Program-made: the position numbers and the translations under genes
Notes under the pieces: model-generated
What the model was told of the DNA's origin: nothing
Seen by the model: the letters and a program-made list of their open reading frames with translations, nothing else
The model's database searches: none
Assembly: GCA_044892505.1 (NCBI GenBank)
Contig: CM097883.1
Coordinates: forward strand, 45,260,001-45,324,000
Length of the DNA: 64,000 nt
Reading direction: 5' to 3'
Source of the DNA: Schmidtea nova
Taxonomy: Eukaryota
Shown: positions 12,666 to 64,000 of the stretch, one piece after another
Position numbering within the stretch: position 1 is the first letter of the stretch
Layout: the number at the start of each line of letters is the position of its first letter

Positions 12666-14614
12666 GGAATATTAGTTGTATTCCTATGACCAGCGAGAAA
12701 TTCTTTAGTCTTTTTGCTAGGATTGACTCCTTAACCGTTAAATTCAGACTCTTATCAATTTGTCAGCGAGTCTTTAAATAATGCGGTCAAAACTTTATCT
12801 TCTTTACCCTTGACCGAATCTGAATTTCAGGGTACAATAATAACAGCAAAGTGAATTTTTCCATTTGATTCGGCAACTTCTTTAGAAGTTTTACAAAACA
12901 CTCATCAGTTACCTCCTATCTGGAAAGACGTGAAACCAGATGAATATGAGATAGCTCGGAGAATTTGGCGTGAAACCTCATGTACATCGCTTTTCGATTA
13001 CATGATAGTTTATTTAAAACTTGATGTTTTCCTTTTAGCTGATTATTTTCAGCAATTTAGAGCTAAGTCTATTGACCATAACCGACTAGAACCACTAAAT
13101 TTCTTAGGAATTCCAGGTATGTCTTGGAATTCCGCCTTATTAACTTTAAAATCTCCAATTGAGCTCCTCACCAATATGGAGATGTATAATTTTTTCGAGG
13201 GCGGTATCCGTGGCGGATTAACCTTTGTAAATAAACACTATGTAAAAACAGGATATAAATAATTTATATGGTTGGGCTTTAAGTCAACCTTTACCATGCA
13301 GTAACTTTGAATGGGTCACAGATGACCACTTATTAAATGATATAATTGTTGAATGCACATCGGTAGATTTAGATGTACTTCATTATGGTTATACCATAGA
13401 AGTGGATTTAGAAATACCGACGTCGATTCACGACAAACTGGATGATCTTCCAGTTGCCACCGAAAAGATGTGTGTACCGGGTTCGAAAGTTGAGAAGCTG
13501 CTGCATACGCACTATCCAAAGAGGAACTACGTTCTTCATTGGAGGTTTCTGCAACTGTTTATTAAATTAGGTGTTAAAATATCAAAAACACATAGAGCAA
13601 TAAAATTCAAACAAGATAAAATTTTCCAAAATTATATAAATACAAATACGGCGTTACGAGCAGCGTCGACAAATAAATTAGATAAAAACTTTTATAAATT
13701 ACTGAACAACAGTCTTTAGGGCAAGACTGTTGAAAATTTTAAAAAACGTATAAATTTTCGTTTATGCAATTCTTCACAGAAGTTAATGACTTACTGCTCC
13801 AAACCGACTTTCCGAAAATTCACTAAGATCGACGATGACTTGATTTCTGTTTTGTTACGGAAGGAATCAGTGTGTTTGGATAGACCTAGTTACATTGGTC
13901 AAACAGTACTAGATTTATCCAAACTTAGGATGTACTAGCTGCAGTATGAAGAGTTGCAAAAATATCGTGACGACTTCAACTGCGAAATTAATATCGTTGC
14001 TTCGTTGCTGGGGACACTGATTCCTTCTTTTTGGAAATTAAAAATCTTTCGTTAGATATACTATTACCGGCAATGATAAGGGACAAGCTTCTTGACACTT
14101 CAAATTATGACCAAATCATCCTTTATACAGTAGGAACATTGATTCTGTCATTGGAAAGTTCAAAGACGAGAATAAAGGGCTACTGTATGAAGAGTGGGTG
14201 TTCTTAAGACCAAAGTGTTAAAGTTTAATGGGCGACGAGGCATGTATTAAGGCTAAGAGGATTTGCATGAAAGATGCTGGACTAACACATCAGTCGTATC
14301 TGGATTGCTATTTAAATAACAAGATATACACAGTCCCTCAGTTTAGAATAACTAGTAAGAACCACCAGTTATTTAGTATAAAAAATAATAAGAGGGCATT
14401 GACATGTAAGGACGACAAGCGTAATTGGATAGATAAAATTAAAAGTTTGGCATATGGCCATTATAGAGGGGGTGACACCAATATATTTGTAGATGATCCA
14501 CCAGAACAAATCAATGATGATTCAATCCAACAAATAGATGATGTCCCGATTATGCTGATGGATGAAGACTCTTACGCATTTTATGATCTTCCGGAACACG
14601 ATTATTTTAGATGA
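12661..14614 (+). pseudogene. Protein-primed type-B DNA polymerase (Polinton/Maverick/adintovirus-like), decayed
   Basis: YLKLDVFLLAD, GIRGG, DINNLYGWALSQPLP, KLLNNSL*GKT, YIGQTVLDLSK, GDTDS, DDKR...SLAYGHY motifs across several frameshifts and stops. Confidence 0.85.
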
Positions 14615-16898
14615 TGGCGAAAAAGAAACAAAGAAAATCAAAAAGAAATTGAAAATGAACAATCGGCCCTTTTCAGGGCCACAATTAACGATTGTATAAA
14701 ATATTGCGCAATCAATTAAAACTAATATTATGATGTTTAGATTTTAAAGATTATGATGAAAACAGAATAAAAAAGATGTTAAACAGGAATGAAAAAACAG
14801 TAAAGAAAACCAGAATCAAAAAGATATTAAACAGGAAAAAGATTTGTGAAAGTAAAAAAATGGTTCTCTTAGGGCCATAATTGCTGATTGTATAAAATAT
14901 TGCGAAATCAATTAAAACTATTACCGTCTTTTTTAATGAGTTTTCGTTATATGTATTTTAAGNNNNNNNNNNNNNNNNNNNNNNNNNNNNNNNNNNNNNN
15001 NNNNNNNNNNNNNNNNNNNNNNNNNNNNNNNNNNNNNNNNNNNNNNNNNNNNNNNNNNNNNNNNNNNNNNNNNNNNNNNNNNNNNNNNNNNNNNNNNNNN
15101 NNNNNNNNNNNNNNNNNNNNNNNNNNNNNNNNNNNNNNNNNNNNNNNNNNNNNNNNNNNNNNNNNNNNNNNNNNNNNNNNNNNNNNNNNNNNNNNNNNNN
15201 NNNNNNNNNNNNNNNNNNNNNNNNNNNNNNNNNNNNNNNNNNNNNNNNNNNNNNNNNNNNNNNNNNNNNNNNNNNNNNNNNNNNNNNNNNNNNNNNNNNN
15301 NNNNNNNNNNNNNNNNNNNNNNNNNNNNNNNNNNNNNNNNNNNNNNNNNNNNNNNNNNNNNNNNNNNNNNNNNNNNNNNNNNNNNNNNNNNNNNNNNNNN
15401 NNNNNNNNNNNNNNNNNNNNNNNNNNNNNNNNNNNNNNNNNNNNNNNNNNNNNNNNNNNNNNNNNNNNNNNNNNNNNNNNNNNNNNNNNNNNNNNNNNNN
15501 NNNNNNNNNNNNNNNNNNNNNNNNNNNNNNNNNNNNNNNNNNNNNNNNNNNNNNNNNNNNNNNNNNNNNNNNNNNNNNNNNNNNNNNNNNNNNNNNNNNN
15601 NNNNNNNNNNNNNNNNNNNNNNNNNNNNNNNNNNNNNNNNNNNNNNNNNNNNNNNNNNNNNNNNNNNNNNNNNNNNNNNNNNNNNNNNNNNNNNNNNNNN
15701 NNNNNNNNNNNNNNNNNNNNNNNNNNNNNNNNNNNNNNNNNNNNNNNNNNNNNNNNNNNNNNNNNNNNNNNNNNNNNNNNNNNNNNNNNNNNNNNNNNNN
15801 NNNNNNNNNNNNNNNNNNNNNNNNNNNNNNNNNNNNNNATATGCCAACAAGAAATAGTCAGCACTCTAATAGGGTACATCATTTGCTTACCATGTTGTTT
15901 CGGCCCTGAAAATATGGCATAATTTGGTCAGAGTTCTTCCAGTACTGAGATATCCACAAAGACAAGCACCTGGAATTAATTCCGCAGTAATTGCATTTAT
16001 AGAAGAATTCATCTAACATAAAAAAATTCCCTTAGAATTTTTTAGACAGACACTATAACTAAAGAAAATTAAATATAATTTTAAAAAGGCTTATATTATC
16101 GAAAAACTTGTATTAGAAATTTTCAATAAAATTCAAATACGACTCATATATTTTGAAGGGAAAGGAAAACACATTATTTTATTTTTAATTTTATCAAGAT
16201 TTCTGACAATGAAGCTATTTTTAAATTTTTGATTAAACCATTAAATTTACATTTCACTCTTTTCTGTACTCGCTGGGAATATTTGTGTCAGCCCTTCATT
16301 TCCTTCCCATCAAATTCGTGAGCATATTTTCTATTACTATTTGATCTTTTTTTAATCTTAATTTATTTTTTCTCATCAGCAAAACAATTAAAAATCCTGA
16401 AATTTAACGAAAATTCTGATAAATCAACAACAACAATAATCCAAATGCAAATGATCAATTTAAAAAAAGTTTAGAAATTAATGCAACTATAGCAACGGTT
16501 TGTTTTGAGCATTTTGATAAATGAGCTCAGTCAGTTAATAAATCTCAATAAAATGATAAAATCCCCTCAAACGTTGATAATCGAAAATCGTTGAAAATAG
16601 TTGCGAAAAGTTTTCTTACAAAATGCATTTATTGTCTGTAACAGACAGCATCATGGCATAATTCGACTCACCTGATTAGAAATTTGTTCGACTAACAAAA
16701 ATTAAAAATTCGACCAATCAAAAATCGAGTTTGACTTTAAATCAATATTTCAGTTAACAACATGGAATTTATTTAAATTGATTTCTATAGTAACAGATTA
16801 TTTTTAAATTAATTCCATTTATTTTTGAATTTGTTTTGGAAATTTATTATTAAAGATATTCTTTTTGCAAAAAAAAAATAAATATCATATTACAATTG

Positions 16899-17483
16899 AT
16901 GTGCGAATCGTCGAGTTCTAATGAATTGATTCCAACTCAAACAATGGTGTTGCGTTGTCAGAAAAAATTGGCAAGCAAATTCTCGTCAAAATATCTCGTC
17001 AAATTTCTCATGAATGAGCCAACAAATAGAATTTTCGACAATGTTCACAGGCTGTTGTTCCATTACACAAATTCTCGCCAATTGGCAAATAAACAAATGA
17101 AAGACATGATTAAGTTGAATATCAAAGTCACTTTGCTTTTTATCAATGATGTTTTCAGTGATGAAGAAATCGAAAAATCCAATGATTTTCGAGACGTTTT
17201 TTTCAAAATTTGCGAACTGATAATCAAAAGTCGACGATACCGAAATCATTCGGTTCTCATTGATTTGCTTCTGGAAAATCTTTTGAAAGCAAAATCAATT
17301 CTTCTTTTACTCGTCCATCGCCATTTGACAGACAAATCCAAATGTAAAATTATTAATTGTGCAGAGTTCCTCGTTACCAGAGAATTCCTGACGAAAAGTC
17401 TGTCAAATGACGAACCGTTTAAAACAATAATGGATAGGATTTGTTTTGATCTCCAGGACATCATGGATCGAGGATTACTTTAA
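16899..17483 (+). CDS. TNFAIP8: TNFAIP8/TIPE family protein (DUF758), 194 aa, single coding exon
   Basis: QKKLASK...K.MIK..IK..LLF...F...E...RHLTDKS...I aligns by eye over the full length with TNFAIP8. Confidence 0.85.
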   Translation: MCESSSSNELIPTQTMVLRCQKKLASKFSSKYLVKFLMNEPTNRIFDNVHRLLFHYTNSRQLANKQMKDMIKLNIKVTLLFINDVFSDEEIEKSNDFRDVFFKICELIIKSRRYRNHSVLIDLLLENLLKAKSILLLLVHRHLTDKSKCKIINCAEFLVTREFLTKSLSNDEPFKTIMDRICFDLQDIMDRGLL

Positions 17484-18071: not shown

Positions 18072-19345
18072 CACTTATCCCCCGATTTACACGGTACTTT
18101 TTGCACGTTTTCGATTTTACACGGTTTCGAAAATTATTATTTTTTTTATTTCACTCTTATCAATACATATTTATAATAATAATATGCATATGAATATACA
18201 TATTTATTTAAAAATAAAAATATAAGCATAAACAAGGAATTGCCCATTTAAGTATTCGTGTTTTAACAAGTTCTTATTGAAATTATTTTTTTCAAAGTAC
18301 GCGATAAATATTACAAGTATAATTCATTTGTCCAGTTTGATTGATACAACAGTAGATTTGTGTAATGTAGTATTATTTTGAGTTTGATTACACAATTTTC
18401 GAGAATCATCATAACGGTAAGTATCCTATTAAGTAATAAAATTATTTTAATTATTACATAGATATGTGATTTTAAAAGTTTTATAATGTCGAAAGAAATT
18501 CCGAAAAAAACAATTAAAAGAAAAGTTATATCGTTTGAAACAAAAATAAAAATATTAGATAGACTTTGCCATGGAAAAGGTTCATCAGCAGTTGGTAAAT
18601 CATATGGTATGAATGAAGCTACTATTAGGTCAATAAAAAATGAAAGCAATATTAGAAAGAGAGTATCAGCTGGAGTTTCTACCAGTAAGCAAATCTCTTC
18701 ATATATCAGAGATGTTGGAATTGTTAAGATGGAGAAAGCATTAATGATATCTATTGAAGATCAAACAGGGAAAAGACTACCTATTGATACTAATGCAATT
18801 AAATATAAAGCATTGAAAATCTTATCAAAAATAAACGAACAACCATTAACATATGACAACCAAAAACCTGATTTTGCAGCAAGCCATGGCTGGTTCGAAA
18901 GATTTTAGACTCGGCATTCTATTGCATAATCGTAAAAATAAAAGGTGAATTGGCATCTGGTGATGAAATTGACGCAAAAGCGTATCCAGCCAAGCTTTCT
19001 GAAATTATTCAGGCTAACTCCTATCACCCAGATCAAGTTTTTAATGCGGACGAGACGGGTTCATATTGGAAAAAATGCCAAGTCGTACATTTTTGGAAAA
19101 ATCTCAAAACACAACTGGTGGACATAAAGCAGCAAAAGATCGCGTAACCTTCTTATTCTGTAGTAATGCATCAGGTGATAGAATAATGAAACCTTTGGTT
19201 ATAAATAAAGCGTTAGCACCACGTGCATTTAAAGGAGTAAATGTGTCCACACTTCCAGTACATTGAATGTCCATTAAAGGCATGGGTTACCACATCCATG
19301 TTTAGTGAATGGTTCCAGACTGATCTTTGCCATATACAAGAATAT
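18072..19345 (+). mobile_element. Tigger/pogo DNA transposon, decayed, 3'-truncated
   Basis: TA plus TIR CACTTATCCCCCGATTTACACGG; CENP-B-type HTH (RKVISFETKIKIL), SHGWFERF, VFNADETG, KDRVTFLFCSNASG. Confidence 0.85.
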
Positions 19346-22520: not shown

Positions 22521-23928
22521 AAATGAAATTTATTGATTTATTATAAATCTTACTTAATATTTGAATTTGAAACAAGCGCTTTCTAATGAACTTTAAAATA
22601 AAGAAATACGTTATATATAAAAAGTTATGATGATTTAAAATTATTATATATTATTCGGACATTTCATTCGGGACAAAAATTGAGAAATGAAAAGATGGCA
22701 GCGAAATAAAAGAAATCGAACAATTAGCAAGAAAGGTCATTCCTTATTAAGAAGTACAAAAAGGGAAAAGGAATTTCGAAATTGAAAACCAAAAACAAAT
22801 GGAAAGTTTATATTTTCTCTATACTGATCAACTGGTAGTCTTTGGCAGCTTTCGAAATCATTACCATTATTTGCCGAAGTAGTAGACATAGGTATTTGAT
22901 CATTGTTATTTTAATTACTCGCCATATTTTCCTTCTGTTTCTTATTTCAAAATATAAGATTTCTTTTGTACAACTTTTTCTCGTCTAAATTTCAAAAAAT
23001 TATAATTTTTAATTTGACATTTTGTTTTAATTTTGACTCGATTATTAGTTTAAATTTAGTTTAAATTTGTTAAATTGTGACTGTCCTTCCTATTATTCCA
23101 ATCTCAATTCCTTCGACCATGACTATTAAGTACTTTTAGTCACATTCTCTTGATATGACCTAACTTTTGTATATTTCACTTCATAAAAATATGAAATAAA
23201 ATAACCTTTAAATTAAAAACCATTGAAAAATCAGTGTCCTTTTAAAGATTTTGAAAACTATTAAATATTTTTCATTGACTAACAGAAAATATTTTTATAT
23301 CACTCGGTTTTTAAGGGAAAAACAGAAATAAAACATAAAATTTTATTAAAATAAAATTTCAATTTTAAAATTTCAATTAAAATCATTTTTAAAACATTTT
23401 TTAAATAGTAAATATTTTTAATTAGTCTTTTAAAAATTATTTTCATTTAATAAATCTCTTTTTAAATCAAAATTGCACAAAAAAAGTTTAGATGTAAATT
23501 AGTAAATGTATAAATTGCATTTCAAAAATAATTCAACTTAAATATTTTAATTTTAAACGGCAAATTAATTTTACAAAATGATTTTTATTTGGATTTTTAT
23601 CCATATTTTATAAAATTTTACTAAAAATTTCCTGGACAAATTATTTTTAAAAATTTAAAAAAATATTTTTTTAAATGTTTCATAGTTGTAATTTGGGATA
23701 ATAAAATTGCATTTAAAAAGAAAATATTGTTATTTATAAAAAGTTACCATTTAAAAAAATTTATATGATAACAAGTTTAAATTTCATCTGTTTTAAAGAG
23801 TTCAATTTTTTTCAACAATAAAATTAGAATTATTATATATTAATTTTATCCAATGAAAACTCTTTAAAATTCAATAAATTAGTAATTCTATTTTTTTCCT
23901 TATATACTTAGTATAAAATATTTATAAA

Positions 23929-24750
23929 ATGAACATTTGTATGATTTGCTATTGTGAATACGATGAATTATGCATTGTCATCAAATCTTGCCAGCATCAA
24001 TTCTGTTGGGGATGCATGAGGGACTGGATAATAATAAATCCCATTTGTCCATTAGACAGGAACTTGATTTTCAGAATGGATCTTATTAGAGACAACAAAG
24101 TCATTGACAATATAAGTGCAAATGATATGCTAGAAGGTATCATATGCCAGAAAATAGAAGAGATTGATGGGATAATCGAGTCTGGGCAAAGTTATCTGAT
24201 CAATCAACTAACCCAAATTAGAACATTAGAAGTATATCTATGTGACAAAATAGATAAATCTCTGAAAATTAAAATAAAAAATATGTATTTAATAAAAAAA
24301 ATTAAGTCCCAAACGCCCTCGCCGAATTCCATAAGATCCTCGTGCCTGCAACTAAGGAATTTGATAACGAGAGAAACGGTTGACATGGCCAGGCTGTATT
24401 ATAATGCCAAGAAATCTTACAAAGAAACGTATAAACAGTTCAAATTAATAGACGAAAACAAAGATAAATTAGAAATCTTTGAAGTGAATTGGGGGGTAGA
24501 CACTGGCAACAGGTCACAACTTGTCCATGATTTGCGAGTGAACTTGCAGGCAGTTTACAACTTTTGGTTTACTGTTCAAATAAATTTCGTAGACATTGTT
24601 ACGATATTCCAAAACTTTCACTGCCATGCCCGACTGCAGACTTCCAGACGAAACTCGAAATCAAAGAAAATATGCTTAGAGGACTTACAAAATATTCGTA
24701 ATTTACAAGAAATATCATTGGGGTACACCACAAAGGCTCTTAATAGATAA
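23929..24750 (+). CDS. Intronless RING-HC (C3HC4) E3 ligase-like protein, 273 aa
   Basis: N-terminal CMIC...CQHQFCWGCMRDW....CPLDR followed by a helical region; intact ORF; AATAAA downstream. Confidence 0.7.
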   Translation: MNICMICYCEYDELCIVIKSCQHQFCWGCMRDWIIINPICPLDRNLIFRMDLIRDNKVIDNISANDMLEGIICQKIEEIDGIIESGQSYLINQLTQIRTLEVYLCDKIDKSLKIKIKNMYLIKKIKSQTPSPNSIRSSCLQLRNLITRETVDMARLYYNAKKSYKETYKQFKLIDENKDKLEIFEVNWGVDTGNRSQLVHDLRVNLQAVYNFWFTVQINFVDIVTIFQNFHCHARLQTSRRNSKSKKICLEDLQNIRNLQEISLGYTTKALNR

Positions 24751-27051: not shown

Positions 27052-30000
27052 CAGCGCCGTGCTGTAACTTTTGGGGGCCCTGTGCAGAAACTAAAAATTT
27101 TCTTTTTTAATTTGTATTAATTTTTCATTGATTTTATTAAAAAAAATAATACAAAGCAATTATAAAGTAATTTTTCTAGCTCTTTTGCTGGCAAATTCAT
27201 CAATTATGTCATTGTAATCAATTTTTCTGGCTGTTGCATTTTCAATTGACAGTATTGCTAATCCAGAAAGTCTTTCCTGCGACATAGTAGACCGTAGATA
27301 ATTTTCAATTAATTTTAGTTTTGAAAACGATCGTTCACAATGAGCAACGGTAATGGGTATTGTTAAAATGATTCGATATACGATACATACATTTGGATAT
27401 AATTCTTCCAAATTCCTTTCTAAAATGAATTGAAAATTCTGCATAATTGTATAATTATCTTCTAAAATATATTTTAAAATAGAAAGTTCATTTTTAAATT
27501 CCACTTCTTCAATATCGCCTTCTAAGCGCTTGACCAGATTTGTACAATTAGCATTGAATTCATTTGTATTCATAGTTTTTAGCTTCTTATTATCGAAAAG
27601 AAAACCGAAAATTTCATTTAAAGAATTATACGATTCAAATCGTTCTTGCAATGAATCTTTTACAATATCGATTAATTTATAAAAATAAGATTGTTTAAAT
27701 TTATCTTCAGCAGTTAGAGTTAGATGGTTACACTCATCATCAATTTCAGGAATGAGATCATATATATATATATAAATATCATCTGGTATATCATCTGTAC
27801 TAATAACATCGACATCGTTATATTTATCATCTGCTTTATTTTTATGGTCTGTATAATAACAGTAGTCAGCCAATCTTTTGAGATTACGTACTCTCCGTTT
27901 TGGTAAGGGTAAACCAGGTTCTGGTGATTTATCAAGACCTTCATTGTTTCTACTTGTTAATATTTGCGTATCACGAGAAGGCCGTTCAGTGAACTGTGCT
28001 ATTACATTTATTGCAACCGATGACTCTCGTGCTTATTTTATAATTTCTTCGAAATTGTTTTTAAAATCATCAAGCGATAATAGCATAGCACTTGTATGTT
28101 GTAATGCTATTTTAATTGCCATATCTTTTCGCTGAAGCAATTGGCTAAAAATGTGAAGCTTTGATAACAAGTGATACCAAATTGTTGTTAATACAATAAA
28201 TTCATAAGAATTTATTTGTTTTATTAAAGATGCAGCAAGAGTTTTACAATCTGGGTAGGTATTTTTAAGTTCATCTAGCGCAATACTAATTTCTTTAATC
28301 TGGTATTTCACGGCTTTTATACTTTTAAAGCGATATTCCCATCGAGTATCGCTGGGCGCCTTCAGATTAATTTTTAAATATTTTACTTGAATAGCCCATC
28401 GCTTTGTCGATGCAGCAAAAATTTTATATATATTATTTAATGTAGTGAAATAATTCTGACTTTTAATAGTGTTTTTTACACTATCTCCTATTACTAAATT
28501 GATGTTGTGTCCACCACATGGTGTATACCATGCTTTATTGTTGATTTCTAAAATTCGACTTTTCACTCCCTTATATTCTCCTTTCATATTGCTTGCGTTG
28601 TCATACGACTGACCACGGCAATCAGCAATTTTGATTCCCAATACTCTTAATTCTTCAATAAGGACATTTGCTAAATTTTCTCCAGTTGAGGACAATATAT
28701 TTACAAAGCTTAAGAAACTTTCTTGAATACTTGGCTTTTGGTCCGTTATTTTAACATACCGAATAATGATGGACAACTGATCTTTTTGGCGAAAATCCGA
28801 TGTTGAATCTATCATAACTGAAAAGTACTTTGATGATTTAATATATTTTACTATTATATGTAAAACTTTAGAAGCTAGTTGTAATATAATCTCGTTTTGA
28901 ATTTTAGCGGAAAAATATGACGTCACTCTTTTTTCCGTTTCAGTTACTGATTTTAAATGCATTTTTAGTTCTGGAACAAAATCAGAAAGTAATTCAATTA
29001 CTCCCAAAAAATTACCATTATTCGGTTCAAAAAGTTTTTCGTTGCTGCCTCTAAAAGCTAAATTTCGTTCACTTAAAAACAATACCGCTCTTACTATACA
29101 TTTCAAAATTATTCGCCACCTTCGCTTTTCTTCATTGAACACATCTTCATTAAGATGGTCTATTCCTGTTCTACGTTTAATATTAAATTCTAGAATTCGC
29201 CATTTATACTCTGATTCAATATGCTCCTTTGAAGATTCATGTTCAGATAACCGTTTTCCTGTGTGTGCATAGTCAGAAAATCCGCCATAAGTTAAGCTTA
29301 TTTTCATCAATGAAAACAAACGGCAACAAAAGCAGAAAATGTTTCCTGTTGAGTTAGAATATAAAAGCCATTTTCTTAATTCTTTTTCAACATTTTTCAT
29401 TTGTCGATAAAAAAAAGTGGCACTGAAACATCTTCCTTGAGATTTTTCTTTTATAATGGATACCTTCAATACATTTTGGTGACTGCTCGACCAAAAACAT
29501 CCGTTGTTTGTTGTCGATTTCAACAGGCCAAGTTGCAGGATCTAATATATCATATTAAATTTAGCAGATAAAGTACTGCTCTCTATTTGTGGATTATTAC
29601 TAATTTCTGAAATATTATCAGATAAAATATCGTCAATATTTGCGCAATTGGTTCCTGATTCATCATCTACATTCTCGCTCTGATTATCATCAATATTCTG
29701 AAGTTGTGGATCATTGACATTTTCTTCTACATTGTTTTCAAGTTGAGACATACTATTTGAAATCATATTTCAATTAAATTAGTGTTCGAAATTGATGAAC
29801 TTTCGCCTCGTTTAAAAAATTTATCTAATGATCCAGCAAGCCCATTTATTTCTGCTGATTTCCGGACTTGTTTTGCTCTTTTTTGTGCGCCGCTTTCATA
29901 ACATCTTTTTGACATTTCTAATTGAGGTAAAAAAAATTACAAAAACAACAGTTTAAAAAATAAATAAAAAACTTAAATAAATATATTGATAACACAACTG

Positions 30001-36689: not shown

Positions 36690-37831
36690 CTATTTATCGC
36701 CCCCGCATTCCTCCTCCTCTTCCTCGTCATCCTCATCACTTTCCCCAGATACGGAATCATCACCGGACACTTCGTTGTTAGCCTCCTCCAGCTCTGCCAA
36801 TCGTTTCTTCAAATTCTGCTCATCGTGATCCGATACGACTTTTGGCTGCACCAATCAATCAATCGACGAATGAAATCAATAATTACCGGTTCCAAAAGCT
36901 TAAATGAGCCTCTTTTCGCTTCAATTGCCTCCTGAATCACCCGAATCGCTTCATTGAGTGTCGATAATCCATTTGCTTTATCCAATGTTTGACAGGTCAT
37001 CATAAATTGCGGTGATTGAATGAGATTGATTTTGATTTCCAGCTCCTTTGTCGACAACTCCAATCCTCGACACAGCGCATATTTGATCGCATCGACACCT
37101 TCTGGTGTGAAACATGACACCTCGAAATCACTCCTGATTTTGACAGCCTGTGGCATCATCCTGCGGTGAATGTCGGCTAGTAATTTCTCCTTAATCGATG
37201 CTTCCAAATCGCATTCATCGAGCACTTCAGGATTCCTATTCCAACCGTTATACTCCATTTAATAGACCACAAATGCAACACATACGTAACGGCCTGCTTG
37301 AAAACATCGTAAGAAGCGCCTTTTCGGCAGTATTTCCTGTCGAAATGCCAAGCAGTTTTGTTGAATAAATCTTCAAGTTGCTCATCACTAGTGAAATGCA
37401 ATTCCTCTGCCAGTCGCCGGAGGATTTGATTAACAGTTTTTGAATTGGCGAATTTCTCTTCACATCGAGCAACTTCCTCGGCCGATACTTGCCGTTTAGA
37501 CAGATCAATGTATTCTTAAAATGGTTATTTTTTATTGTAATTATAGTATATATATATATCAAATATTTTCTGATTATATATGTTGCTACATACTTTTATC
37601 AGCGTCAACTCTTATGACAGACACGACTTCATTCCTACCAACTCGAAGGAGTTTGTTGACTGAGCGAATTCGTCTACGACTCAGTTCACTCAACAATATC
37701 ATACCTTCGATATTTTGATATTCTAGAAGACTGACATAAGCTCCCATAGCTTGAATGGATTTGACATTGACTACAACCACATCACCAATTTCTGGTAATT
37801 CGTTTTCATAATATCGGCATTTTAAGGCCAT
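36690..37831 (-). CDS. EIF2S1: Translation initiation factor eIF2 alpha, 323 aa (exons 37831-37594, 37514-37286, 37235-36887, 36845-36690)
   Basis: MALKCRYY...[15 protein letters not shown] (Ser51 loop intact), [22 protein letters not shown], acidic tail; GT-AG introns of 79, 50 and 41 nt keep the frame (972 nt total). Confidence 0.95.
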
Positions 37832-47942: not shown

Positions 47943-50083
47943 CAGTGGATTCCGGTTAATTGGGACACAACGGGACAGGAAAATTTATCCCAAATATACA
48001 GGTGTCCCAAATATACAAAATGTGTATCTTATAGCAAAAAATATATACAAAAAAATATTTAACAAAAAAAATATCATTAAAATAGCAACTGATATATTTA
48101 TAATTAACATACAATATTTAAAAAGGCTACATGAAAAATTTCCGAATATTTACTATTATAGCCGGCTTATATATTTATCCAGTGTACTTTGTCGTTTCTT
48201 TTTTAAAAACTTCAGATGAACAAAGTCAGAACATAAATCTAATGCGGGTAGCGGGCTTCCTTCATTTCCATTTTGCATAAAATAATGTCGTAACTTTTCA
48301 ATACACTCTGCAGCCTCGCTATTCCTCACACTAACAAATTCATCTTTTAACTCTCCATTATTCTCAGTTTTAAGAGGTGATTCTATTTCATCGTGAACAA
48401 TCATTTCCATGATATCATCTTCATAATTTTCGTTTTTATCATAACACTCAAGATTCTGATCAATATTCAAATATTCATCGCAGTTTTGGATGTTAAGTAA
48501 TGCGCTCATGTTACTTGGTTCTTCGACGTAGAATTGTGGAGCTTCAATTTCCGATTTTTTAAAACCACAATGGGAAAAACAATTCATTATCGTTTCCTTT
48601 TTAATATTTCGCCACCCTTGAGTTATGAAATGAATTGCCTGTAGAACATCAATCTTCGTACTAATTTCTTTTGCGCTTGTTGTGGAATTTATTAAATTTT
48701 TATCAATTATATCAAGTATGTGCATAATCAAATTTTCACGGTAGAACAACTTTAAATTCCGAATTATTCCCATATCTAGCGGTTGGATCAGAGACGTGGT
48801 ATTGGGTGGAAGGTACTCTAGCTTAATATTGGTCAAACAACCCAAGGATGGATGGGAAGTACAATTGTCCAATACCAACAGAATTTTCCTGTTGGAAATT
48901 TGCAGTTCCTTGTCCCAATCGATCAACCACTTCATAAAAATTGTCGATGTCATCCATGCTTTTTTGTTTGCGAAATATGAAACTGGTAAATTTTGAAGAT
49001 TTAAACCTTTAAAATATCGCGGGGATATACTCTTACCGATTATCAATAGTTTTTTCTTATCACAACCAATCATATTTACACAACACAATACAGTAATACG
49101 ATCCATCGCCTTTTTACAGCCAGAAATATGCGAAAATTCATAACAAAGAGAACCATCTGGGGTGGCCCTATACAAAACCCCGGTTTCATCTGCATTGTAT
49201 ATGTCAACGGGGTCGTATTGCTCTAAAATTTCAGGCAAACGATTAGATTTCCAATCTTCTGCCCCACATTTATCCACACTCTCTTTCTCCCCGTGCCTTT
49301 TCTTGTACTTTATTTTATGCTTTGCTTTCCATCGTGATAGCCAACCGTCCGTAGCAACAAAATTATCAAATCCCATTTTTTTAGCAAATTCTTCTGCCTT
49401 AGACTTCTGCCTTAGACTTCAACATATGACAATTTATGGAAATGCCTCTTGCCAGGATCAATGAAAACCATTGTTTGAGTGCATTTTCCACCTTTGGGTT
49501 TTTTCCTTTCCGATTTCTTTTCTTCAATTTCGAATGTTTCTTCGACAATATATTCCATTCGTCCATCAAATCGTCTTTGCTAGCAATTAAACGGCACATT
49601 GTAGATTTCGAAATACCGGCAATCACAGCAAGTTGCCGTATGCTTGTTGTTTTGGGTGTATCTTTTATCTTTTCAAGGATTTCGATCTTTTGCGCTAATG
49701 TCACATCCTTTCTTTTCATGTTGGGAGCTTTTAAAATATGATTATATTTTACGAACTTTATTATCAAATGTTAGTTTTTGTTATCTTTTATTTGATCAAT
49801 ACTTTTATTTAAATGTTATCTGTTAGCTATTGATTTTTTTAATTTAAATTTTTGTTAAACAACTTATGAGTATTTTTTTAACCCGCCAAAAGTTTTTATG
49901 TTTAAATTATCCATTCTATTATATACGCCCAAACAATCAATTGTCCCGTTTATACGGGATGCTGTCCCGTTTAAAATAATAAAATTAGAATGTATACTGC
50001 ATATTTGTTTCGGGACTTAAGAAAATGTCCCAATAAGACAGTTGTCCTAATTATACGGTGTCCCAATTAACCGAAATCCACTG
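47943..50083 (-). mobile_element. Complete Tigger/pogo transposon (TIGD-like), 2141 bp, frameshifted by a 13-bp tandem duplication
   Basis: TA TSDs; TIRs CAGTGGATTCCGGTTAATTGGGACAC / GTGTCCCAATTAACCGAAATCCACTG; HTH ORF 49767-49399 and DDE ORF 49376-48156 (YNADETG, LVLDNCTSH, QPLDMGII); CTTCTGCCTTAGA repeated at 49391-49416. Confidence 0.95.
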
Positions 50084-50882: not shown

Positions 50883-51000
50883 ATGTCTACGTCTAAATTC
50901 ACCAATTTTCTTGCCCAATATAAAGATAAAGAAACGAAGAAATTAAGAAATTTTACTGCTTCACAATTTGCAGAGGTTTGGAGTCACTACGATGCTGATG
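50883..51000 (+). CDS. First coding exon of a calbindin/calretinin/secretagogin-family EF-hand protein
   Basis: MSTSKFTNFLAQYKDKETKKLRNFTASQFAEVWSHYDADG resembles invertebrate calbindin N-termini (NF..QY.D.E...L...A.QF..VW.HYD.DG); GT donor at 51001 inside the first EF loop. Later exons not found (gaps or outside window). Confidence 0.75.
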
Positions 51001-52022
51001 GTATTATTTTGTTTTTATTAAATTTGTTGAAATTGACTTATTAATGGGAGCCTCATCTAAAATAATAATATAGAAATAAAAATATTATAGAAAAATAATT
51101 TATGGAAAATAGTTACTTTAATTTATTAAAAGCATTTTTACTTATTAGACATTTATTATAAAGTTCTAAAAGGACAATTTAATCTATTTTCCATTCCAAA
51201 TTTTTTGGATAATATTTTACAAATTACTTAAAATTTGAAAAGAATATTTTAATTTTTATGTTAATTTAATCTATTTTATATATTAAAATTTAAAATTTAA
51301 TCAGTTTTGCTGACTATCATTTAATCACTTAAATAACACATCTATTTAGAATTTGGATTGGAAATATAATCAAATTTTTAAAAAGGGAAAATATAGTTCT
51401 CAATAAATATTTTTAGTCGCATAAGAAGTGCATTATATCTGTGGTTGGGGGACGAATAATATTTAATATATACAATAATAATAATATATACAACAGAGCA
51501 TGACATGTTTATCTAAATTTTAAATTTTACAGTAATATCATCTTTATTTTCGTCATTATTTGTAATATTTATTTAGGAAAACTATTTTTGTACAGGTATC
51601 TGCATGAATTTTATATTTCAGTTGCGTCGGGAACGAGCAATTAAAATATAAAATGTAAATATAACGGTCGGCCATGTGTCACTCAAGCGTTTGAAAGATT
51701 TACAGTAAGTAGCGTTTGTCTCGGACACGATCAAGCACCTTAAATGGTTAATAAGTCATTGTATAAAGAACTAAAAGACTTTATTTATAAATTCAGCACT
51801 AGTTTTTTTAGAAAAGATCTTACATTTTATAAAAATCAAATGTATTTCTATTTTTTAATATTTTNNNNNNNNNNNNNNNNNNNNNNNNNNNNNNNNNNNN
51901 NNNNNNNNNNNNNNNNNNNNNNNNNNNNNNNNNNNNNNNNNNNNNNNNNNNNNNNNNNNNNNNNNNNNNNNNNNNNNNNNNNNNNNNNNNNNNNNNNNNN
52001 NNNNNNNNNNAATATATATTTT

Positions 52023-52063
52023 GCACAATATATTTCGAGAACTTAGTTCTCTTAATCAGGTGC
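52023..52063 (-). ncRNA. Hammerhead family B copy with G8U change
   Basis: GCAC-CTGATTA-A-GAGAAC(TAA)GTTCTC-GAAA-TATA-TT-GTGC. Confidence 0.65.
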
Positions 52064-52846
52064 TACCCAATCTTACATTCAAATCTAAATCAAATAAATC
52101 GATTTTTTCAAACAAATTAGTATTAATTTTTTTAAATAAAATATATATTTTAAATCTCATATTATATTCAAAATATTTAAATCGATTAAAATTTTTTAAT
52201 TTAAATAAATATTCTTAAAAATATAATATTCTTTTATTTTTATACAAAAAATATTTTTTTTAAGAATATTTTATAAATATTCCCATATTTATAAACAACA
52301 GAATGATTGAAAACGAAATCCATAATCCCCAATTAAAAATGCTCTAAAACTCGAGTACAGAAAAGACGGTCAGTCTTGTCCAAAGTATGTGGCATTACGC
52401 CCATGACATTGGAAAAATTAAACGAGTATAGAACACAAATCAAAAGAAAAAAATAAACACCACCAACAACCACATCAGGTAATTTACTTAAACACACGGA
52501 CTCAAACCTCTCACATTCACATATTCACAAACATCGACATGACTGAAAACAACGCTAAATCCCATTAATTGACTCCGCTCTGAAACTCGAATACAGAAAA
52601 TATATTGGAAAAGACCGTCTTATATGGGAATATTTATAATATATTCTTAAAAAAATATTTTTTTGTATAAAAATAAAAGAATATAATATTTTTAAGAATA
52701 ATTTATTTAAATTAAAAAATTTTAATCGATTTAAATTTTTTGACTATAATATGAGATTTAAAATATATATTTTATTTAAAAAATTAATACTAATTTGTTT
52801 GAAAAAATCGATTTATTTGATTTAGATTTGAATGTAAGATTGGGTA

Positions 52847-52887
52847 GCACCTGATGAAGAGAATGCGGTTCTCGAAATATATTGTGC
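52847..52887 (+). ncRNA. Minimal type-I hammerhead ribozyme, canonical core (family B), intact
   Basis: GCAC-CTGATGA-A-GAGAA(TGCGG)TTCTC-GAAA-TATA-TT-GTGC; predicted cleavage after 52883. Confidence 0.85.
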
Positions 52888-53858
52888 AAAATATATATTT
52901 GAATTGACGATTGTTTTTAATTATTTTAGTGCCANNNNNNNNNNNNNNNNNNNNNNNNNNNNNNNNNNNNNNNNNNNNNNNNNNNNNNNNNNNNNNNNNN
53001 NNNNNNNNNNNNNNNNNNNNNNNNNNNNNNNNNNNNNNNNNNNNNNNNNNNNNNNNNNNNNNNNNNNNNNNNNNNNNNNNNNNNNNNNNNNNNNNNNNNN
53101 NNNNNNNNNNNNNNNNNNNNNNNNNNNNNNNNNNNNNNNNNNNNNNNNNNNNNNNNNNNNNNNNNNNNNNNNNNNNNNNNNNNNNNNNNNNNNNNNNNNN
53201 NNNNNNNNNNNNNNNNNNNNNNNNNNNNNNNNNNNNNNNNNNNNNNNNNNNNNNNNNNNNNNNNNNNNNNNNNNNNNNNNNNNNNNNNNNNNNNNNNNNN
53301 NNNNNNNNNNNNNNNNNNNNNNNNNNNNNNNNNNNNNNNNNNNNNNNNNNNNNNNNNATAAAATGAAACTTACATTTTGCTCACTCACAAGGCATTGCAC
53401 CAGAACATAATATCTAATTAAACAAACCCCCGATGTGCTTGTTGGCAAACCTTAATTGTTGATATTGTTTTTCTTTGAATTGAGAGACTTTTTACCCAAT
53501 TTTGAAAAGTTATTATCAAGAAAGATCATTTCTTTTTATTAGCATTTTTTGTTTAGTGTTGCTGAGCGGAAAAGAGTGAAGCGCAAAAGAAAACGTTCCT
53601 TTTGTAATAAATATGATTTTCAGTTGTATTTTAGTTTTCTTTATTGTAGACAAAGAATTAAATTAGGAAAAAAAGTGTTTTGTTACATTTTAATTTTTTC
53701 GTTATATTTTTGAAAATCAAAATACTATTTTCTCAATTTGTGCTACCGGCCTCGATGCGGTCCAAGACATTACTATTATTGTTATTTGAAATGTAGACGT
53801 TATAATTTATTTTCATTTTCATTTCAATATAAATTTTTAATAATAAAAAATACAAAAA

Positions 53859-58545: not shown

Positions 58546-58639
58546 AAAAATCCGTATAGTCGTGGTCTATTGTTAGCGATGTTTTATGTTAATTAAATAG
58601 AGTTATTTATGATGTGCTGTGTATGTAAGGAGTAGGTAG

Positions 58640-59410
58640 ATGTGTGGAGTCAAACACAAAGAAATGAGTCATAATGCGTGGGCGTAAAAATTCAAACAAA
58701 GACTTTTTAGTTACCGAGCCCCCCCCCCGGGAGGGGGGGGGGGGGGGTTCGCGCCAAATTTTTTTTTCCCGCCAAAAATTTTTTTTTCAAATTTTTTTTT
58801 CGCGCCAAAAATTTTTTTCAAATTTTTTTTTTCGCGCCAAAAATTTTTTTTCAAATTTTTTTTTCGCGCCAAAATTTTTTTTCAAATTTTTTTTTCGCGC
58901 CAAAATTTTTTTTTTTTAATTTTTTTTTGCTCCAAAATTTTTTTTTTCAAAATTTTTTTTCAACACAAATTTTTTTAACCCAAATTTTTTTTTCACACAT
59001 TTTTTTAAACAAATTTTTTTAACACAAATTTTTTTTTAACACATTTTTTTAACACAAATTTTTTAACACAAATTTTTTTTAACACATTTTTTTTGACACA
59101 AATTTTTTTTAACACAAATTTTTTTTTTAACACAAATTTTTTTTTAACAAATTTTTTTTTTAACACAAATATGAGTCATCGAAAACTTTGCAACACGTGT
59201 GGAGTCAAACACAAAGAAATGAGTCATAATGCGTGGGCGTAAAAATTCAAACAAAGACTTTTTAGTTACCGAGCCCCCCCCCGGGGGGAAGGGGGGGTTC
59301 GCTCCAAATTTTTTTTTTTCAAATTTTTTTTTCGCGCCAAAAATTTTTTTTCAAATTTTTTTTCGCGCCAAAAATTTTTTTTTCAAATTTTTTTTTTCGC
59401 GCCAAAAATT
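58640..59410 (+). promoter_or_regulatory. Duplicated module: AP-1 site, EGR site, C-run/G-run hairpin and tandem E2F-site array
   Basis: ATGAGTCAT at 58664, 59171, 59219; GCGTGGGCG at 58676, 59231; hairpins 58715-58751 and 59270-59301; TTTCGCGCCAAA x7 and TTTCCCGCCAAA x1. Confidence 0.5.
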
Positions 59411-59589
59411 TTTTTTTCAAATTTTTTTTTTTCAAAATTTTTTTGACAAATTTTTTTATTAGACAAATTTTTTATTTTTTACAAAATTTTTTTAATTTAA
59501 GACAATTTTTTCTTTTTAGACAAATTTTTTATTTTTACAAAAATTTTTTAATTTAAGACAAATTTTTTATTACACAAAATTAGAGTAAT

Positions 59590-61479
59590 CAAAAATATTT
59601 GCAACAGGTGTGCAAACTAAACAAAGACATTGTTGTATGTGTGCATGTTGAATTAATTATTATTTGTCAAGTATGAAGCTTTTGCACATCAAAACCATCA
59701 CAGAAGAGGTTCTGCTTCCAGGGTTCTGATCGCAATGTTCTGCTTCCAGGGTTCTGATCGCAATGTTCTGCTTCCAGGGTTCTGATCGCAATGTTCTGCT
59801 ACTAATATTGTTATTTATTCATTTAATTATTATTATTATTATTATTATTATCTTTCAAACTATACAAAGACTTTGCAACACGCGTGCAAGTTAACAAAGA
59901 CATTGCAACACACGTGCAAGGACTTTGCAACACGCGAGCAACATGAACAAAGACATTGATACACGCGTGCAACATGAACAAAGACATTGCAATACACATG
60001 CAAACTAAACAAGGACAAAACTAAACAAAGACATTGCAAGTTAACAAGGACTTTGCAATACACATGCAACATTAACAAAGACATTGCAATCTACATGCAA
60101 CGTAAACAAAGACAATTCATTGCCAAATTTCATAACAAAGACATTTCAATGCCAAAAACTAAACAAAGACAATTCATTGCCAAATTTCATAACAAAGACA
60201 ATTCATTGCCAAATTTCATAACAAAGACAATTCATTGCCAAATTTCATAACAAAGACATTTCAATGCCATAAAAACTAAACAAAGACATTTCAATGCCAA
60301 AAAAAAAAACTAAACAAAGACATTTCAATGCCAAATTTCATAACAAAGACATTTCAATGCCAAATTTCATAACAAAGACATTTCAAAGCCAAAAACTAAA
60401 CAAAGACATTTCCTTGCCAAATTTCATAACAAAGACAATTCATTGCCAAATTTCATAACAAGGACAATTCATTGCCAAATTTCATAACAAAGACATTTCA
60501 ATACCAAAACATCTAAACAAAGACATTTCCTTGCCAAATTTCATAACAAAGACAATTCATTGCCAAATTTCATAACAAAGACAATTCATTGCCAAATTTC
60601 ATAACAAAGACATTTCAATGCCAAAACATCTAAACAAAGACATTTCATTACCAAATTTCATAACAAAGACATTTCAATGCCAAGAAACTAAACAAAGACA
60701 TATCAATACCAAAATAACTAAACAGAGACACGAACATTTACTAGCAGAACATTTACTATCAGAACATCTTTTGTGATGGTTTTTATCTGCCAAAGCTTAT
60801 TACTCGAACATTAATTACAATTCAACTTCATTCAGCATCATTTGATAAAACAAAGACATATCATTGTCAAAACACCTTAACAAAGACATTACAGTACCCA
60901 TGCAGTGNNNNNNNNNNNNNNNNNNNNNNNNNNNNNNNNNNNNNNNNNNNNNNNNNNNNNNNNNNNNNNNNNNNNNNNNNNNNNNNNNNNNNNNNNNNNN
61001 NNNNNNNNNNNNNNNNNNNNNNNNNNNNNNNNNNNNNNNNNNNNNNNNNAAAGTAATGTNNNNNNNNNNNNNNNNNNNNNNNNNNNNNNNNNNNNNNNNN
61101 NNNNNNNNNNNNNNNNNNNNNNNNNNNNNNNNNNNNNNNNNNNNNNNNNNNNNNNNNNNNNNNNNNNNNNNNNNNNNNNNNNNNNNNNNNNNNNNNNNNN
61201 NNNNNNNNNNNNNNNNNNNNNNNNNNNNNNNNNNNNNNNNNNNNNNNNNNNNNNNNNNNNNNNNNNNNNNNNNNNNNNNNNNNNNNNNNNNNNNNNNNNN
61301 NNNNNNNNNNNNNNNNNNNNNNNNNNNNNNNNNNNNNNNNNNNNNNNNNNNNNNNNNNNNNNNNNNNNNNNNNNNNNNNAGGATTCAAAAGTTTTTAAAC
61401 AAAGACATTGTAATGCCAAAACATCTTAACAAAGATATTGCAATACAGATACTGGTTAACAAAGACACACATGTAAGTT

Positions 61480-61521
<42 letters not shown>

Positions 61522-62260
61522 CCCATTTTGACACTGCAATCCATGTGCAAAATTAACAAAGACATTGCAGTACTGGTGCAAGTTAACAAAATCATTGCAA
61601 GCTACAATTACAAAGACATATCTTTAATCGAAATAATAATAAAAATAGTAATAATAATTTAAAAAAAAAAAAATTCAAGGTTTCAAAACTTTTAAAAATA
61701 TGTATGTATGTGTATATTTTCAAACCTTCAAGATGTCAAAATAAAATAATTAAACTACCACAACGTAATATATATTAATTTTCCTACCCATTTTGACGCT
61801 GCAATTCATGTGCAAGTTAACAAAGACATTGCAATGCAGATGCAAGTTAACAAAGACATTGCAATACAGATGCAAGTTAACAAAGACATTGCAATACAGA
61901 TGCAAGTTAACAAAGACATTGCAATGTGGATACAAGTTAACAAAGACATACATGCAAGTTAATAAAAAATATTCAAAAATATTCAAAAATATTCAAGGGT
62001 TAAAATTTTTTTTAAAACTATATAAATATCATGCGAAAGATATTTGAGATGTGTGTATGTGTGTATTTTCAAACCTTCAAGATGTCAAAATAAAATAATT
62101 AAACTACCACAACGTAATATATATATTTATTTTCCTACCCATTTTGACGCTGCAATTCATGTGCAATATTAACAAAGACATTGCAAAGACATTGAAAAAC
62201 AGATGCAAGTTAACAAAGACATTGCAGTTGCAAGCCAAGTTAACAAAGACAAGATGTCAA
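59590..62260 (+). repeat. Composite minisatellite region with AACAAAGACATT core (28-, 29- and 30-bp units) and a duplicated 125-bp block
   Basis: 28-bp unit x3 at 59709-59792; 29-bp AAATTTCATAACAAAGACAATTCATTGCC array at about 60110-60690; 30-bp GCAAGTTAACAAAGACATTGCAATACAGAT array at about 61810-61950; block at about 61700-61815 repeated at about 62050-62170. Confidence 0.9.
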
Positions 62261-62355
62261 AAAAGACTAATTATTATTATTATTAATCACAAAGTGCATT
62301 CTCTTAGCCAATGATAAAAATAAATTAAATGAAAATACATATATTTTGTACGACA

Positions 62356-62954
62356 TTATATGTATATCACATGATATTCATCAATATTAATACCGCAAGA
62401 TTCACACTTATCAATATTTTTTAAACATTTTGAACAAATAATGACATGTCCACAAGGTAAATATAAAATGCCAACTCTATTTATATTACATATTGAACAT
62501 GTGAGAAATCTTTGTTTGATTTCTTCCAATTTCTTGGTTACATTTACCTCTAAAATATCTACATTCAGCATGAAAGATCGAATAATAGTACGATATTTTC
62601 CAAGTCGAAATTCCATACATGACCAGAAAATGGTATTCAAATTGAATTCAGTAGAATCGATATCATTAAGAATCATAATAAAACTGGATAATTTCATCAT
62701 GGATTTATCATATCCGAATGATTCTGTTAAACCAATAATTAATTTATTATTGAAGGATTTGAATAATTTTGAAAGAATGTCGATATCGCATTTCTCAATC
62801 GATGTTAAAAGGTCATCAAGTATTAAAAAGGATTGGATCCAATTGTCCAAAGTAATGAAATTATCTGTAACCTAGTTTAAAATAATTAATTTAAATATAT
62901 ATTTTTAAAACTAACTTTATTTGTTTCTTTATTTGTTTCTTTATTCATTTTCAT
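62356..62954 (-). CDS. IAP/MDM2-type C-terminal RING protein without BIR, 184 aa (exons 62954-62916 and 62871-62356)
   Basis: CSIC....ILYLPCGHVIICSKC....KCESC..I at the extreme C-terminus; 44-nt GTTAGT...CTAG intron joins MKMNKETNKETNK in frame to the listed ORF. Confidence 0.75.
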
Positions 62955-62977
62955 CAATCAATACTATTTAAAAGTTG

Positions 62978-63035
62978 TATTTATATTGCAAAAATCAACC
63001 AATTTAATAACCAACCATTTTATTGACCAACCAAT
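62978..63035 (-). promoter_or_regulatory. Putative core promoter of the RING gene
   Basis: TATAAATA at 62985-62978 (minus strand); CCAAT at 62999-63003 and 63031-63035. Confidence 0.4.
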
Positions 63036-63109
63036 GATTGAAAGTTTTTGCTAAACTGTTACATTAAAATGATGATAAGGGACATTGAAAATTAGGTAAC
63101 AATATATTT

Positions 63110-63230
63110 ATTATTAGAAATATGTTCAAGTAATGAGCTTTTGCACATAAAAACCATCACAGAATAGGTTCTGCTACTAGGGTTCTGCTCGCAATGTTCT
63201 GCTCGCAATGTTCTGCTACTAAATGTTCGG
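63110..63230 (+). repeat. Third copy of the GCTTTTGCACAT.AAAACCATCACAGAA..GGTTCTGCT repeat (also 59670-59800 plus strand and 60730-60820 minus strand)
   Basis: Direct sequence similarity. Confidence 0.7.
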
Positions 63231-64000
63231 TCACTATGACAAATACATGAAAAATTATCATACTATTGAGATAATCACACAAATAATTCTTAAATTATAG
63301 TACAAATATATCAAAAATATATGAAATATACATTACATACTTGAAATATTATCACAAAGTATCATTACATACATGAAATATCTACATACTTGCTCAATTA
63401 CACAGAAAATCATCAAAGTTACACACAAAATATGAAAAGTATATAGAAATTCGTCACATACAAAAACATCGTATATATGAAATATTATCAAAAATACATA
63501 GAAATTTATCACACACATACAAAATATCACCATACTATAGTGTATAACTATACATACAAAATATCAGAAATACATAAAATTTCATCTTACTATAGTTTGA
63601 TAACATAGAAATACATGAAATATCCTCAAAATACAGAAACTTTCACAGATATATAGATTCATCATACAAAATATCATATATATAAGAAATATCATTACAG
63701 ATTATGACATGCATGAAATATTGTTATTATAGTGCAAATTACATAGAAAATAGCAAAGATACATGAAATATCATCACAAAATACACACAAAATTATAGGA
63801 AATTTTTACACACTAGAAATAATAATAATAATAATCATAAAAAGAATATTATCATGCCAGTACAAAATTATACAGAATATTATCACATTGAACAAAAGCT
63901 TATCATATATATGAAATATTATTAAACTTTTATGTAAACTACAAAGAAAAATACAAACATATACACAAAATATTATCACATTATAGTGTCTAAACATTAG

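Follow-up and report, generated by a model that had tools for sequence, protein, structure and literature searches.

Protein-primed replication of Polintons starts in their terminal inverted repeats. Palindromic or hairpin derivatives of yeast pGKL1 and snap-back defective adenovirus genomes carry one end head-to-head and need a helper polymerase, and the non-autonomous Drosophila Foldback elements have very long inverted arms and internal tandem repeats. A search on the pGKL1 and adenovirus palindromic derivatives returned no relevant paper in the portion of the literature that it reached, and Foldback elements are mentioned in passing in PMC6431247. Vertebrate Mavericks make 6-bp duplications, and their terminal repeats measure 46-1,447 bp (PMC8097293). 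NF I, NF III/Oct-1, Sp1 and ATF sites lie in the terminal repeats of adenovirus (PMC5717082), and in Brassicaceae one E2F motif became genome-dominant via amplification of DNA transposons (MITEs), for which a benefit to the replication or repair of the element has been proposed (PMC7329337). EGR and AP-1 motifs are characteristic of enhancers that act in the regeneration of acoels and fish (PMC8019671). A Maverick expansion has been reported in Dugesia, with palindromes unmentioned in the accessible part of that report (bioRxiv 10.64898/2025.12.11.693146); a planarian genome comparison mentions neither Polintons, Mavericks nor palindromes in its main text and three of its four supplements (PMC11410931); and the passages of PMC6431247 available to us do not describe giant palindromic Polintons. 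Within the sources accessible to us, we found no published description of giant palindromic Polinton derivatives and no published report of Polinton ends with E2F, AP-1 and EGR sites; either may already be described in Grohme 2018, Kapitonov and Jurka 2006 or Repbase.

The window analyzed here is a stretch of 64,000 nt from Schmidtea nova (GCA_044892505.1, contig CM097883.1, positions 45,260,001 to 45,324,000), an animal in which wounding and stem-cell division are central. A sequence-only reading had proposed that a motif cassette in it serves a large mobile or viral element as control region or replication origin, and this is supported: the cassette almost certainly forms the outer portion of the terminal inverted repeat of a Maverick/Polinton. 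Its start, previously set at 58640, had to be moved to 58631, which is the end of the element. The giant palindrome, its autonomous relatives and the cargo genes had escaped that reading. The whole element spans 16.6 kb (G000:C2:45318631-45335237). Its left arm leaves the window and ends at 45326571, and is followed by a loop of 727 bp and then by the mirror arm; the arms are 7.9 kb long (7.94) and 99.4% alike, their alignment of 7,958 columns containing nine mismatches and 11 gap openings. The right copy of the target duplication GTAAGG follows the far end, at G000:C2:45335238. The features in the window, in window coordinates, are:

58625..58630, plus strand: GTAAGG, the left-hand member of the 6-bp target-site duplication
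58631..64000, plus strand: left arm of the palindromic Polinton derivative, from the arm alignment
58631..58649, plus strand: terminal 19 nt (AGTAGG...), identical in autonomous elements
58664..58672, no strand assigned: AP-1 consensus of head 1, exact match
58676..58684, plus strand: EGR/Zif268 consensus of head 1, exact match
58719..58747, no strand assigned: C-run/G-run of variable length, from sequence and fold
58748..58905, plus strand: E2F-site tandem array 1, period about 32
59171..59179, no strand assigned: third AP-1 consensus, exact match
59197..59297, plus strand: head 2, which repeats head 1 internally but lacks its terminal bases (AP-1, EGR, C/G run)
59298..60157, plus strand: E2F array 2 and inner repeat region, ~76% alike to the terminal repeat of an autonomous element
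59860..62251, plus strand: AACAAAGAC-based tandem arrays
62356..62871, minus strand: open 171-codon RING frame, one copy per arm
62916..62948, minus strand: RING gene, short first exon as predicted from the sequence

Like the autonomous Mavericks/Polintons, the element has AG..CT-type ends, a 6-bp duplication and a length within 12-25 kb (PMC8097293, PMC6431247). It differs from them, and from its same-ended relatives in this genome, which have core genes and terminal repeats, in lacking core genes and in carrying two copies of a RING gene and, in its loop, a small predicted gene. Moreover, its inverted arms of 7.9 kb compare with 46-1,447 bp in vertebrate Mavericks, and its end hexamer is AGTAGG rather than (AGT)2 or (AG)3 (PMC8097293). 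Genes for polymerase B, rve integrase, capsid, ATPase and protease are all absent from it, and the only frames of at least 130 codons are the RING frame and its antisense overlap. It is a non-autonomous giant palindrome with a Polinton end, and not a member of the autonomous family. The terminal 19 nt are likely, judging from the sequence, to comprise the origin core and the integrase end. The pGKL1 and snap-back adenovirus forms differ from this element, which is integrated with target duplications, has a fixed gene-bearing loop and is present in at least several hundred copies; Foldback elements differ in that here the ends and the 6-bp duplication are of Polinton type and an intact gene lies in the arms. 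The Brassicaceae MITEs contrast with an animal host, Polinton ends, 16 kb, coding cargo and the addition of AP-1 and EGR. Three other identities were considered and rejected: a MITE, which would be short and non-coding, given 16.6 kb and coding cargo; the LTR of a Burro-type retroelement, given inverted arms and an element without RT; and a single-locus host enhancer, given thousands of copies with insertion marks.

A search of the genome with its own sequence yielded 1,254 candidates, and the 40 that were scored were 90-100% alike. Several of these 40 formed inverted pairs 14-21 kb apart; six pairs were fetched, and all six palindromes have AGTAGG..CCTACT (AG..CT) ends and perfect 6-bp target duplications. 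We considered whether the palindrome could be an artefact of fold-back reads, or of assembly mirroring around an ordinary repeat. The near-identity of the arms would fit this, as would the fact that short-read contigs span only 28-30 letters over the arm-loop junctions, short of the 31-letter rule. However, symmetry ends at AG..CT, beyond which lie direct 6-bp duplications and then flanking DNA of unrelated sequence. A single loop junction is shared by 28 of 30 loci, exact matches to the two loop junctions number 823 and 360 (a lower bound on the number of RING palindromes), and repeat counts differ between the arms of single elements. We regard an artefact as next to negligible in probability.

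The arms of one element resemble each other closely. Across nine elements, arm-to-arm differences amounted to 0-1 of 1,849 columns in eight and to six in the ninth, and a nested third arm in one element showed 66; between elements the median was 19 and the minimum 1, so that some arms of different elements, among close copies, differ by a single position. Private variants were found in both arms 97 times and in a single arm eight times. Since the arms of one element share private variants, we infer copying through a fold-back intermediate, by which the arms would be kept uniform; equal arms might also stem from post-insertion gene conversion or from polishing of the assembly. The palindrome itself would arise by template switching (copy-back) during protein-primed strand-displacement replication. 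Each of the 30 best loop matches is flanked by inverted arms, and the search through the loop for a longer parent met palindromes only among these 30 loci. In other subfamilies the loop boundary has been reset, to 503, about 355 and 0 nt, as seen in six loci chosen for their odd junction spacing. The giant palindromes offer in this respect sequence evidence for a fold-back step long proposed in Polinton replication.

Loci with E2F 12-mers and without the exact end led to conventional elements of 17-18 kb that begin with these 19 bases; their terminal repeats measure about 0.5-1.3 kb, and their ends too carry AP-1, EGR and E2F sites. The window's element and a complete relative are identical over the first 19 nt and ~76% alike across the inner repeat. 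One complete relative encodes pPolB (PF03175), adenain protease (PF00770), an A32 ATPase, a weak rve/chromo integrase match, a TBP domain and a 407-aa putative capsid resembling a sister-family protein with a weak double-jelly-roll match. Full-length pPolB frames were not matched to PF03175 by hmmscan, and their C-terminal part was. The TBP-domain gene (PF00352) was seen in complete elements at L097:4795-5286 and L063:2749-3258. Perfect target duplications flank four of the five complete-element pairs examined; the flanks of the fifth are inverted rather than direct, with a further end 2 kb out. Among ten full-size B-type ends sampled, eight led to core genes and two to RING palindromes, which thus also bear the end type of the relatives. 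Eight short pairs comprised two single-arm RING elements, which exist alongside the palindromes, one chimera, two elements with two RING copies and three deleted complete elements; the duplications were imperfect in two of the eight. Chimeric copies (L225-L226, L039-L041) also occur: in one form a polymerase fragment is attached to a RING arm with its loop, and in another a palindrome encloses a third arm from another subfamily.

The shared ends, the duplications and the many near-identical copies point to mobilization in trans, and it is very probable that the palindrome depends for its spread on complete same-ended elements as helpers, whose polymerase and integrase would act on it in trans. 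That these elements copy and insert the palindrome, and that the putative host-factor sites serve the element, we consider probable as a combined reading.

The sites themselves were largely found as the sequence-only reading had described them. The AP-1 consensus ATGAGTCAT is present at 58664 and 59219, and the EGR/Zif268 site GCGTGGGCG at 58676 and 59231, 3 nt past AP-1 in both heads; the E2F site TTTCGCGCCAAA occurs at 58798, 58830, 58862, 58893, 59330, 59361 and 59395, with its variant TTTCCCGCCAAA at 58765. A third copy of ATGAGTCAT, at 59171, had been overlooked, and the rest of the 64-kb window holds no further exact AP-1, EGR or E2F sites. The consensus definitions used for the three factors are the textbook ones, and the EGR match widens to a 14-base stretch, which we take to be the SELEX optimum. 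The first-order chance per 130 nt is 1.3e-3 for the AP-1 9-mer, 4e-5 for EGR and 2e-5 for the E2F 12-mer. The two heads, of 101 nt, are 96% alike and spaced by 555 nt. This duplication, real at this locus, is not fixed and varies among family ends: a further EGR 12-mer lies 200-900 nt inward in 17 of 32 ends, and a second exact AP-1+EGR 20-mer in only four of 65. The E2F arrays are tandem, as claimed, with a period of 32-34, and array 1 decays inward to GCTCC and AACAC units as far as about 59170. AACAAAGAC also flanks the AP-1/EGR head and has 41 exact copies in the window, none of them outside the element.

Two further statements of the reading needed correction. The DNA had been called CpG-poor; the window has a CpG observed/expected ratio of 0.99 at 30% GC, so that the CpG-bearing sites are conspicuous because the DNA is AT-rich and not because it is CpG-depleted. 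Protection of the kind seen in CpG islands was discarded as an explanation, as there is no depletion. Minimum-energy folding does pair the C- and G-runs of the proposed hairpin (z -2.19), but the structure is poorly defined, with a weak centroid of -6 kcal/mol; the run at 58719-58747 is C10..G15, but its length differs between copies, that of head 2 being C9-G6-AA-G7. Three other Polinton families likewise have a C-run followed by an A/T block at their ends.

We examined the same motifs in 115 loaded ends, a biased sample of best matches plus chosen variants. AP-1 was found in 97, EGR in 83 and E2F in 84, compared with shuffled means of 0.02, 0.00 and 0.18; the matches to consensus were made after the fact and, because all copies descend from few founders, the counts are not independent. 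We also asked whether site cores are better kept than their flanks. Of the first 100 A-type ends, 65 carry an exact AP-1+EGR 20-mer and 17 an exact copy of the adjacent flank 20-mer, and genome-wide the exact counts are 2,655 and 1,096; this leans to the cores, but modules are lost in some lineages, and the flank control is imperfect, as it contains an easily mutating T5 run. In 12 hand-picked heads the cores match at 75% and other head positions at 54%, and ACAAAG, at 98%, is better kept than the AP-1+EGR cores. The E2F cores are exact in 208 of 222 cases, counting only cores within two mismatches; this invariance is not taken as evidence because recent amplification explains it.

The arrangement of the sites varies. 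AP-1 lies upstream or downstream of EGR or forms tandem arrays, in either orientation, and the swap between TGAGTCA and TGACTCA might result simply from inverting a near-palindromic site. AP-1 is missing from several lineages, EGR from one recurring lineage (four ends) and E2F arrays near the end from some lineages; motifs are decayed in older ends. Head and array duplications would stem from slippage in T/A runs.

We lean, with modest confidence, towards the AP-1, EGR and E2F matches being functional host-factor sites, a suggestion drawn from sequence comparison. They would then act like the NFI, Oct-1, Sp1 and ATF sites of adenovirus terminal repeats, raising replication or transcription of the element in stressed, S-phase cells, and would help it to switch on where cells are wounded or dividing. 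By this analogy, the end likely works like an adenovirus terminal repeat that carries a stress and S-phase code. Adenovirus likewise has a protein-primed linear genome in which a core origin is followed by host-factor sites (PMC5717082); here the putative sites are AP-1, EGR and E2F, the tandem arrays are variable and the elements are integrated at thousands of loci. The end offers a testable answer, in the form of three named host factors, to the question of how Polintons switch on and in which cells.

It is fairly unlikely that the matches are incidental, that is, that they are binding or spacing signals for proteins of the element, or slippage products, which happen to resemble host motifs. 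One founder would account for every copy, modules are gained and lost among lineages, the array grades smoothly into AACAC units, and each family has its own tandem core, as expected of element-specific protein sites. Against this stand three long exact metazoan consensus sites inside 140 nt (1e-3, 4e-5 and 2e-5 each), the recurrence of AP-1 at non-homologous positions, and the core of family 2, which is exactly AGGTCA, with a mean of 12.75 per end versus 0.31 after shuffling.

Four Polinton families were recognized in this genome, with pPolB mostly 62-72% identical between them; all share the AGTAG end, the C-run and the A/T block, and differ in their tandem cores (L114-L133). The sister families have AGGTCA arrays (eight of eight ends), TGTTTAA with GAAGTGA (12 of 12), and one E2F 8-mer with GGGCCA (15 of 15). 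We take the AGGTCA arrays to be nuclear-receptor-like and those of another sister family to be forkhead-like. Such differing cores fit a family-specific host code, and also fit sites for element-specific proteins. A broader scheme, in which Polinton families split the host by cell state through the differing transcription-factor codes of their ends, the wound/S-phase family is a virus-like multi-part system with palindromes supplying an apoptosis-modulating RING ligase, and the ends affect regeneration, is unlikely; were it true, ~10,000 ends would hold most of the perfect E2F and EGR sites of the genome.

Palindromes were also seen in the sister families, at loci partly picked because they were paired. 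A second family with pPolB as its sole long frame has an 8.9-kb single-arm form and 14-16-kb palindromes with 6-bp duplications (G000:C3:118.28 Mb, C1:287.93 Mb, C1:127.08 Mb, C1:81.29 Mb and C3:89.73 Mb; L048-L055, L116, L118, L121, L164-L171). A palindrome of 33.8 kb with a 6-bp duplication (G000:C1:483.12-483.15 Mb, L060-L063) consists of ~16 kb, most of a complete family-2 Polinton, duplicated head-to-head.

The cassette family is abundant. Exact ends number 3,491 + 6,765 = 10,256 genome-wide, with none in controls; an inward partner was located within 40 kb for 33 of 52 plus-ends, and an outward one for a single end. With every end paired at 16.5 kb, the share of the family in the genome would come to ~6.8%, a rough upper figure. 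E2F 12-mers total 30,145 versus 57 for the reversed control and EGR 12-mers 13,907 versus 14, and of the first 100 E2F 12-mers, 96 map no more than 2.5 kb inward of a family end. This excess is evidence of amplification and not of function. Since the family supplies nearly all sampled perfect E2F 12-mers, it would confound motif-enrichment and ATAC analyses.

These numbers, together with the EGR and AP-1 motifs of acoel and fish regeneration enhancers (PMC8019671), would also suit a role of the copies in the host, as a sink for E2F and EGR or as wound-responsive enhancers near genes. Such a role is very improbable on the sequence evidence: the copies are young and scattered, their motifs are decayed in older ends, and TE-borne E2F sites in Arabidopsis are mostly bound and seem non-regulatory for genes (PMC7329337). 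It can coexist, as a side effect, with the explanation of the cassette as a Polinton end.

The cargo of the arms is a RING frame with a helical N-terminal part and a C-terminal IAP-type RING (PF13920, E 2e-9), whose best solved matches are the cIAP and XIAP RINGs (E 2e-15). None of 16 aligned members matches a BIR domain, and the cargo is therefore not classed as an IAP. The predicted first exon is preceded by CCAAT- and TATA-like words and followed by a putative 44-nt GT-AG intron. In the 150 best of 10,752 candidates, a best-first and thus biased set, the frame is identical and open. Between subfamilies pN is lower than pS (e.g., 0.010 versus 0.060, from small counts), and in three comparisons, also with small counts, substitutions amount to 1.4-2.0% in coding versus 3.8-6.9% in non-coding sequence; one damaged copy shows the reverse pattern. 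The protein may be a ubiquitin ligase acting in cell survival, as inferred from its sequence. A word-index search recovered no homologues among 46 candidates, and a full HMMER search gave 289 hits, eight of them below 1e-10; the ten hits looked up are all unnamed or hypothetical. The Atlas has no entry for the sequence, a homologue leading to generic RING clusters only. No RNA records holding the RING region were listed; it appears as contigs in four runs whose type is not on record; they come from a single study with two organism codes and are uninformative on expression. The loop, beyond the window (L031:8572-9298), holds a predicted small two-exon gene with a coiled-coil-like C-terminal stretch; its first exon is open in 30 of 30 loci, and its second, read in one, has no Pfam match.

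Elsewhere in the window, the first exon of a calbindin/secretagogin-like EF-hand gene lies at 50883-51002 (plus strand). A pattern search found no next EF-hand exon before the element or in the 2.7 kb after it, and the element may therefore lie in the first intron of that gene. Fragments of another Polinton-type polymerase B (PF03175) were seen at 12855-14614 (plus strand), and a 277-codon frame with an N-terminal RING (PF13639), possibly mobile-element cargo, at 23917-24750 (plus strand). Transposon remnants at 10649-12469 (minus), 18462-18908 (plus), 27160-29541 (minus) and 48156-49770 (minus) are of Penelope-like RT with GIY-YIG, Tc5/pogo-type and hAT transposase types. A TNFAIP8-like frame (16854-17483, plus) and eIF2-alpha exons (36809-37515, minus) are also present. 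Finally, 52011-52899 is an element of ~890 bp with inverted arms of ~280 bp that are 88-94% complementary, and a similar one occurs in L056.
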